In this document: in pieces, positions 22,948 through 23,172 of the stretch | Position numbering within the stretch: position 1 is the stretch's first letter | Layout: every line of letters starts with the position of its first letter | From: Clostridia bacterium | Lineage (GTDB): Bacteria; Bacillota; Clostridia; JAAYHZ01 | Direction: 5' to 3' | Length of the DNA: 64,000 nucleotides | Assembly: GCA_050950825.1 (NCBI GenBank) | Contig: JBMNIH010000006.1 | Span: 224,001 to 288,000, forward strand | Made by a program: the position numbers and the translations under genes | Notes under the pieces: model-generated | The model's input: only the letters and a program-made list of their open reading frames with translations | Database searches by the model: none | Told to the model about the DNA's origin: nothing

Positions 22948-23172
22948 AAAAAGCTTTCATCCCAAAAAAGGGACGAAAGCTTATCATTTCCGCGGTACCA
23001 CCCTTGTTAACCGAATCAATTCGGTTCACTCCGTAAGGATTGATATCCGTATCCTTAAACGGCCCGGTATTAGCCGGGTTCTCGGGAGTGGCTTTCGACT
23101 TTTGCGATTTATCGGCTTGCACCTACCGCCGACTCTCTGAATAACCGACAAAAGCTACTTTCTCCGTCGCCG
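22948..23172 (-). promoter_or_regulatory. T-box riboswitch leader of serS-alaS
   Basis: Stem I with AGUA/GAA specifier loop, CAGAGAG bulge and GGUGCAAG loop; T-box AAGGGUGGUACCGCGG (22990-23005); terminator 22951-22982. Confidence 0.92.

Follow-up and report, generated by a model that had tools for sequence, protein, structure and literature searches.

The window analysed here is the whole stretch of 64,000 nucleotides. On its minus strand, the genes serS and alaS follow a T-box leader. The covariance model of Rfam family RF00230 matched the leader at 22966-23179 (minus strand) with a score of 108.6 bits (gathering score 93, E-value 4.5e-23, model positions 1-219 of 219); RF00230 was the sole Rfam family matched within the 64-kb window. 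The features of the locus are as follows.

18992-21631, minus strand: alaS, second operon gene (TIGR00344, 1031.9 bits, cut-off 457.05)
21644-22915, minus strand: serS, first operon gene (TIGR00414, 432.6 bits, cut-off 301.65)
22951-22982, minus strand: predicted intrinsic terminator with a 13-bp stem, a 6-nt loop, and a U-rich tail (hairpin prediction; helix 8 of the ortholog alignment)
22966-23179, minus strand: T-box leader with Stem I, Stem II region, Stem III, and T-box sequence/antiterminator (Rfam RF00230)
22991-23005, minus strand: conserved T-box sequence with the bulge UGGU at 23000-22997 (sequence and RF00230 alignment)
23085-23096, minus strand: 3' side of the specifier loop, GAA-A-GCC-A (23096-23089), then the closing helix strand CUCC (23088-23085)
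23156-23165, minus strand: GGAG (23165-23162) as 5' strand of the Stem I closing helix, then AAAGUA (23161-23156) on the 5' side of the specifier loop (sequence and RF00230 alignment)
23203-23231, minus strand: promoter-like site TTGACA-17-TATACT (11/12 match to the consensus), adjoining the leader upstream

The Stem I elements seen in the RF00230 alignment are the specifier loop (AAAGUA...GAAAGCCA), the AG bulge AGAGA, and the distal loop GGUAGGUGCAA. The 3' side of the specifier loop is composed of the S-turn GAA, a spacer A (23093), GCC (23092-23090), and the purine A (23089). One base upstream, the overlapping triplet AGC occupies 23093-23091 on the same strand; the preliminary description had read this triplet as a Ser codon in the -1 register, and it is indeed present. 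The letters and positions given there for the specifier loop and the bulge were likewise verified in the sequence. The UGGU bulge sits inside GGGUGGUACCGCG. In T-boxes, the bulge is the pairing partner of the NCCA-3' end of an uncharged tRNA. The terminator (22982-22951) overlaps the 3' strand of the antiterminator, so that the two folds are mutually exclusive, as the T-box family demands, and the U-tract 3' of the terminator is broken (TTTAAGTT). The leader is a bona fide transcriptional T-box. Judged by consensus, the site at 23231-23203 is the top predicted minus-strand promoter-like site within 18800-23500. An alpha-L-fucosidase gene (23534-24787, minus strand; PF01120, 271 bits) is located upstream of the leader and is unrelated to the operon.

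Both serS and alaS are single-copy in this 97%-complete genome, as determined by tblastn (serS: one match). The preliminary description had placed the two genes 12 bp apart, with serS first and without a second leader between them. The longest alaS ORF does leave a gap of 12 nt. A GAGGAG ribosome site that follows the serS stop codon is, however, located 2 nt before the ATG at 21631 and 8 nt before the ATG at 21625; the latter is likely the true start of alaS (MKWTG...), because 8 nt is a normal ribosome-site spacing and the alignments of relatives also begin there. The gap is therefore rather 18 nt; since a second leader cannot fit into either distance, the described order and the single leader stand. 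The first gene after the leader is thus not cognate to Ala: serS comes first, and alaS follows 12-18 nt downstream. An internal promoter driving alaS had been named as an alternative to control by the leader; in the consensus scan of 18800-23500, the coding strand from the terminator to the alaS start was free of promoter-like sites. After alaS lies a HIT-family (HinT-like) ORF (18640-19179, minus strand), which in its longest form overlaps the 3' end of alaS. A strong promoter-like site (TTGACA-16-TAAAAT with TG, 11/12; 19125-19152, minus strand) is found inside the end of alaS.

To assign the codon register, we located the purine 5' of the Stem I closing helix and took the three bases before it as the codon. 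The genome contains 14 T-box matches, and 11 with a clear downstream gene were used to calibrate this 3' rule. In all 11 of these other T-boxes the rule returned the cognate codon: AUC for ileS, CUC for leuA, GUC for valS, UAC for tyrS, UGG for the trpB-like gene, trpB, and trpE, UUC for the paaK-like gene, CCC for proS, AUG for metG, and ACC for thrS. The distance from GAA to the codon varied among them, with a one-base spacer in five, none in four, a two-base spacer in one (paaK-like), and no GAA in one (proS), which makes anchoring on GAA unreliable. Applied to the serS-alaS leader, the 3' rule gives GCC (Ala). The layout of this leader is that of the RF00230 consensus, GAA-a-NNN-a-helix; the preliminary description had likened it to the GAA-A-GGC-A of B. 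subtilis glyQS. Read at -1, AGC would be followed by C; a purine comes after the codon in 55 of 57 parsed alaS-only leaders. Every T-box of the genome with an 8-nt loop presents some sense codon at -1, for example AAC (thrS) and UCU (leuA).

Two other T-box matches of the source genome (G000) may be mentioned. The Phe-codon (UUC) T-box at C9:119581-119816 (plus strand) precedes a gene for a PaaK-like phenylacetate-CoA ligase (TIGR02155, 604.7 bits, under the cut-off of 646.3), an unusual T-box target. A weak match (40.8 bits) at C4:310537-310709 (plus strand) has kept the 3' half of a T-box and resembles a trp leader without Stem I. Downstream of it are a 160-aa ORF without a known family and a recombinase-like ORF, and it may be the remnant of a leader.

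The orthologous leaders of three species were aligned. A free fold with RNAalifold missed Stem I, pairing Stem I with T-box bases, and we therefore scored the canonical structure explicitly instead. In this scoring, which is based on three related sequences with the structure taken from one of them, the canonical helices were paired in 85.2% of the cells, compared to 29-55% when the 3' partners were slid by 1-3 columns. Ten pairs exhibit compensatory changes on both sides. Helices 2, 3, and 4 were paired in 100%, 62%, and 100% across the three species, with helix 2, the closing helix, formed in 3/3. The loop-proximal pair of the closing helix, directly after the purine, is G-C here and A-U in the other genus. 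This compensatory change is supportive of the GCC register. GCC (Ala), which the preliminary description had derived from the canonical register, is thus backed by both the calibration and the covariation of the closing helix.

The genome encodes both tRNA-Ala(GGC) with A73 and tRNA-Ser(GCU) with G73, and the same discriminator bases are found in all four tRNA-Ala genes (A73) and all four tRNA-Ser genes (G73). The bulge U of UGGU is complementary (Watson-Crick) to A73 in all four tRNA-Ala genes. The tRNA-Thr has U73 and the bulge of the thrS leader is UGGA; this match indicates that the discriminator rule holds in this genome. Opposite G73, the U would form a wobble pair. A U opposite G73 does occur in nature: two of the 14 serS-only leaders have it, as do Trp leaders of this genome, whose single tRNA-Trp has G73. 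From these Trp leaders, it seems to be tolerated in this organism. As to the suggestion that UGGU can pair with both A73 and G73, both discriminators are encoded and the U matches A73, while a U opposite G73 was seen in other leaders. The Trp-codon (UGG) T-boxes of the genome are, in the order listed, those of a trpB-like gene (C6:106606-106850, minus strand; UGGU), trpB (C4:29653-29899, plus strand; UGGU), and trpE (C4:23588-23834, plus strand; UGGC).

We conducted a census of alaS leaders in 401 genomes of the class with a pattern that required the back-translated FEMLGN motif of AlaRS at a distance of 321-381 nt from a T-box motif whose bulge base was left free. The pattern matched in 60 genomes and the reversed control pattern in none. 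All 59 of the listed alaS-linked leaders have the bulge UGGU, though the pattern did not demand it. These 59 alaS-only leaders comprise 57 newly parsed leaders and two parsed before (L194 and L212). The automatic parse of the specifier was unreliable for truncated or GAA-less leaders, where, for example, AGAAAGCCG (Stem I distal region, L113-115) was taken for the specifier, and these leaders were read by eye. With a reading that is subjective for about ten leaders without GAA and for family f41, the layout among the 59 listed leaders is GAA-GCN, without a spacer, in 37, GAA-N-GCN, with one spacer base, in 13, and without a recognisable GAA in nine. The spacer in the 13 is A in six, G in six, and C in one. 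In the Ala leaders of family f41 (L233-L244), one further unpaired base separates the post-codon purine from the closing helix (GAA-N-GCU-R-N-helix), and the 3' rule in its plain form would wrongly yield Leu (CUR). In one genus of this family, the spacer G creates GGC (Gly) at -1.

In 44 of the 59 listed alaS-only leaders, the base before the Ala codon is A, so that AGC at -1 is the usual state of an Ala T-box. In a second, partly overlapping set of 17 distinct Ala leaders, the base before the codon is A in 12, C in four, and U in one. The exact form GAA-A-GCN was found in 6/59 listed leaders, five from genomes of one genus (family f41) and one from family f66; these two lineages are unrelated, and both are without serS in the operon. 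The preliminary description had proposed comparing the specifier loops of relatives with and without serS, and had held that AGC would be incidental if the motif were just as common in alaS-only T-boxes. The comparison revealed GAA-A-GCN also where no serS is co-transcribed, and the AGC at -1 is largely incidental in this sense: it is common in alaS-only leaders and not specific to leaders that control serS, with the exact GAA-A-GCN being confined to the six.

A corresponding census of serS leaders used the T-box motif together with the MLDxxxIR start of SerRS. It matched in 11 of the 401 class genomes, with one hit for the control; two of the 11 are from the order of the source genome. The nine census leaders from outside this order and five T-box loci from a screen of the best 80 serS loci were combined into a set of 14 serS-only leaders. 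Their codons are UCC (13/14) and UCU (1/14); AGC is absent as specifier codon from all 14. Their bulges are UGGC (12/14) and UGGU (2/14). Locus L272 (genome G039) has a UCC/UGGC T-box before a SerRS-like gene whose product is 31% identical to the SerRS of the window; it may be a divergent serS or a second type of this gene.

The GTDB family and order of the source genome contain three species in two genera, and the T-box-serS-alaS arrangement is present in 3/3. Their specifiers are GAA-A-GCC-A, GAA-A-GCC-A, and GAA-A-GCC-G; the spacer A and the bulge UGGU are kept in all three. Among the best 80 similar serS loci in the genome collection, one, from a species of the same genus, has alaS downstream, five have a T-box with serS only, and 74 have no T-box motif within 450 nt, as judged by a regular expression that divergent T-boxes may escape and with less than 450 nt of upstream sequence in 4 of the 74. 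The large share of loci without the motif indicates that serS generally needs no T-box of its own. No adjacency of serS and alaS outside the order was found in 79 serS loci and 107 alaS loci (80 from metagenomes and 27 from class-level genomes). A metagenome scan for members of the clade, from which near-source records are possibly missing, returned no alaS above 74% identity and no further serS-alaS operon. As far as seen among the loci examined, the arrangement appears to be one evolutionary event limited to this small order. Three genomes then count as one event, which places an association of the spacer or AGC with serS beyond statistical test.

Pairwise similarity of the leader to leaders outside the order was low (scores of at most 58). 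The best match to Stem I was the Ser leader L074, only over the near-consensus stretch of the AG bulge and distal loop, and the best full-length matches were Ala leaders, over Stem III and the T-box. With these low scores and split matches, pairwise similarity did not show descent from an Ala leader and was set aside.

Contigs from digester metatranscriptomes were compared with the locus, using four of the six runs that contained part of the stretch. Two RNA-library contigs bridge the terminator (X15 record 8, 22541-23118; X18 record 32, 22915-23096), and contigs of two studies bridge the serS-alaS junction (X16 record 13, 21566-21842; X18 record 30, 21567-21815). These contigs fit co-transcription and read-through; they prove neither a single transcript nor an RNA origin, as DNA carry-over is possible. 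Leader, terminator, serS, and alaS are covered at similar low depth, in contigs that carry no information on read-through level, transcript end, or strand. RNA-library contigs end at 23180 (X16) and at 23170 (X15, into adapter), near where the leader is predicted to start (Rfam start 23179).

T-box control of alaS and serS is described as conserved in at least 29 of 34 Firmicutes in the available text of Wels et al. 2008 (PMC2494555). With the Ala T-box leaders of alaS, the serS-alaS leader shares the full architecture, the succession of GCN, purine, and closing helix, the UGGU bulge (59/59 listed), the switch between terminator and antiterminator, and the presence of alaS in the unit. It differs from them in having serS between leader and alaS, which was seen only in the three-species order, and in the one-base spacer of GAA-A-GCC, as opposed to GAA-GCN in 37/59 of the listed alaS-only leaders. 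The accessible portions of the literature contain precedents for such an arrangement: a histidine T-box in front of hisS-aspS is mentioned by Väre et al. 2020 (PMC7927825), and Wels et al. 2008 have a category of ligase genes that are second in an operon with another ligase gene and a T-box of different specificity. As in these cases, a single-codon T-box would control two aaRS genes, one of them non-cognate; in contrast to hisS-aspS, the non-cognate gene comes first in serS-alaS and is the only serS. A full-text literature search for "serS-alaS" together with T-box, with most subscription journals outside the search, found no paper.

The T-box reading two codons in Clostridium acetobutylicum (NT-box; Saad et al. 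2013), on which the preliminary description had drawn, is confirmed by the available text of later papers (PMC4052509, PMC4574755, and PMC11404447). According to the accessible part of Apostolidi et al. 2015 (PMC4574755), which cites Saad et al. 2013, T-boxes with an 8-nt specifier loop have been reported to be dual-specific, depending on the downstream operon. Going by these excerpts, the NT-box resembles the serS-alaS leader: both precede an operon in Clostridia, both have an enlarged specifier loop in which two codons overlap with an offset of one base, and in both the amino acid of each codon fits the genes downstream. However, the binding of two tRNAs was shown for the NT-box, as these sources present it, and is hypothetical for the serS-alaS leader. 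The tRNAs in question here also differ at the discriminator (A73/G73), and the same loop sequence is found in alaS-only leaders.

We consider the leader to be probably an ordinary Ala T-box (transcriptional, class I) in which serS is a passenger, comparable to aspS in hisS-aspS. The GCC register, the UGGU bulge, and the presence of alaS in the operon support this reading. Stem I would offer GCC to the anticodon of tRNA-Ala(GGC), and the UGGU bulge would pair with the ACCA-3' end of uncharged tRNA-Ala, favouring the antiterminator over the 13-bp terminator. RNA polymerase would then continue into the two-gene operon, in which the cognate alaS is second and the sole serS would be a passenger brought under alanine control. 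We infer that tRNA-Ala is the effector and that serS is supplied enough by basal and Ala-dependent read-through. The AGC at -1 would be a by-product of the standard GAA-N-codon-purine layout, arising whenever an A at N meets a codon that begins with GC. Speaking against an Ala-only leader, serS is the first gene and sole copy, and serine starvation could not induce SerRS through the leader; the loop is also of 8 nt with a free spacer A that completes AGC, compared to the 7-nt loops of most listed alaS-only leaders (GAA-GCN, 37/59). The mostly constitutive expression of serS and alaS from an intact leader, through leaky termination or an unrecognised promoter, would leave only fine-tuning to the T-box. 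The similar low depth of leader, terminator, serS, and alaS in the RNA-library contigs and the interrupted U-tract after the terminator fit such expression, but contig depth is no measure of read-through, the leader is conserved with compensatory changes in three species, and the region between terminator and alaS is free of coding-strand promoter-like sites in the consensus scan. We regard this as improbable, and it is with the same low probability that the codon question would be of little physiological weight.

The preliminary description had left a choice between dual Ala/Ser sensing and serS under Ala control. The latter is supported, and the former would be a minority reading that we consider unlikely: a two-codon T-box in which tRNA-Ala(GGC) is read via GCC and tRNA-Ser(GCU) via AGC, one base upstream, such that a shortage of either amino acid would induce serS-alaS, in the manner of the Asn/Glu NT-box of C. 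acetobutylicum. The bulge U would serve both discriminators, by a Watson-Crick pair with A73 and a wobble pair with G73, a dual use that we find similarly doubtful. The overlapping AGC and GCC triplets occur together with both matching genes, both tRNAs are encoded, and the 8-nt loop class, here with an operon downstream, is tied to dual specificity in the available text of PMC4574755. The spacer A is kept in all three species of the order; the A of AGC is this free spacer, whereas in 7-nt Ala leaders it belongs to the S-turn GAA. Two serS-only leaders and Trp leaders of the genome do place a U opposite G73, and the single-copy serS is accompanied by no other Ser T-box found in the genome. However, all of these features are also what an Ala T-box has by default, and any Ala T-box whose spacer is A would present the same sequence evidence. 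AGC at -1 is present in most listed alaS-only leaders, GAA-A-GCN recurs in six from two lineages without serS, and some sense codon stands at -1 in every 8-nt T-box of the genome. All 14 Ser leaders from the class have UCC or UCU as codon and none has AGC, the -1 register puts C where 55 of the 57 parsed leaders have a purine, and the three genomes, as one evolutionary event, permit no statistical test of an association with serS. Least probable of all is a serine-only T-box in which AGC, directly after GAA as in 7-nt loops, would be the effective codon and alaS the passenger. It would account for serS being the first gene; the codon directly follows GAA in 37/59 listed alaS-only leaders and in most Ser leaders, and such 5' anchoring leads to AGC. 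The distal region of Stem I is closest to that of Ser leader L074, though over a stretch near the family consensus. The 3' anchoring was, however, correct in 11/11 T-boxes of the genome, where the distance to GAA varies and a one-base spacer occurs in five. The purine 3' of GCC leads directly into the closing helix, which has a compensatory change; the bulge is UGGU, shared with all 59 listed Ala leaders, and not the UGGC of 12/14 Ser leaders; and no Ser leader in the sample uses AGC.

For the annotation of T-boxes, the census calls for caution: anchoring on GAA misreads leaders that bear a spacer, and a codon at -1 is nearly automatic and no evidence of dual specificity. If the two-codon reading were true, only one two-codon T-box would have been documented before it, and the leader would be the first such case to span two different discriminator bases. 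It would co-regulate AlaRS and SerRS and be fixed in a whole order of anaerobic-digester Clostridia. AlaRS confuses the substrates of these two synthetases (Ala/Ser). Read as an Ala T-box with serS as an unusual passenger, the leader would provide a clean, order-wide case of an essential, single-copy serS wired to the charging of a non-cognate tRNA, which is relevant to how strictly aaRS genes depend on cognate feedback.
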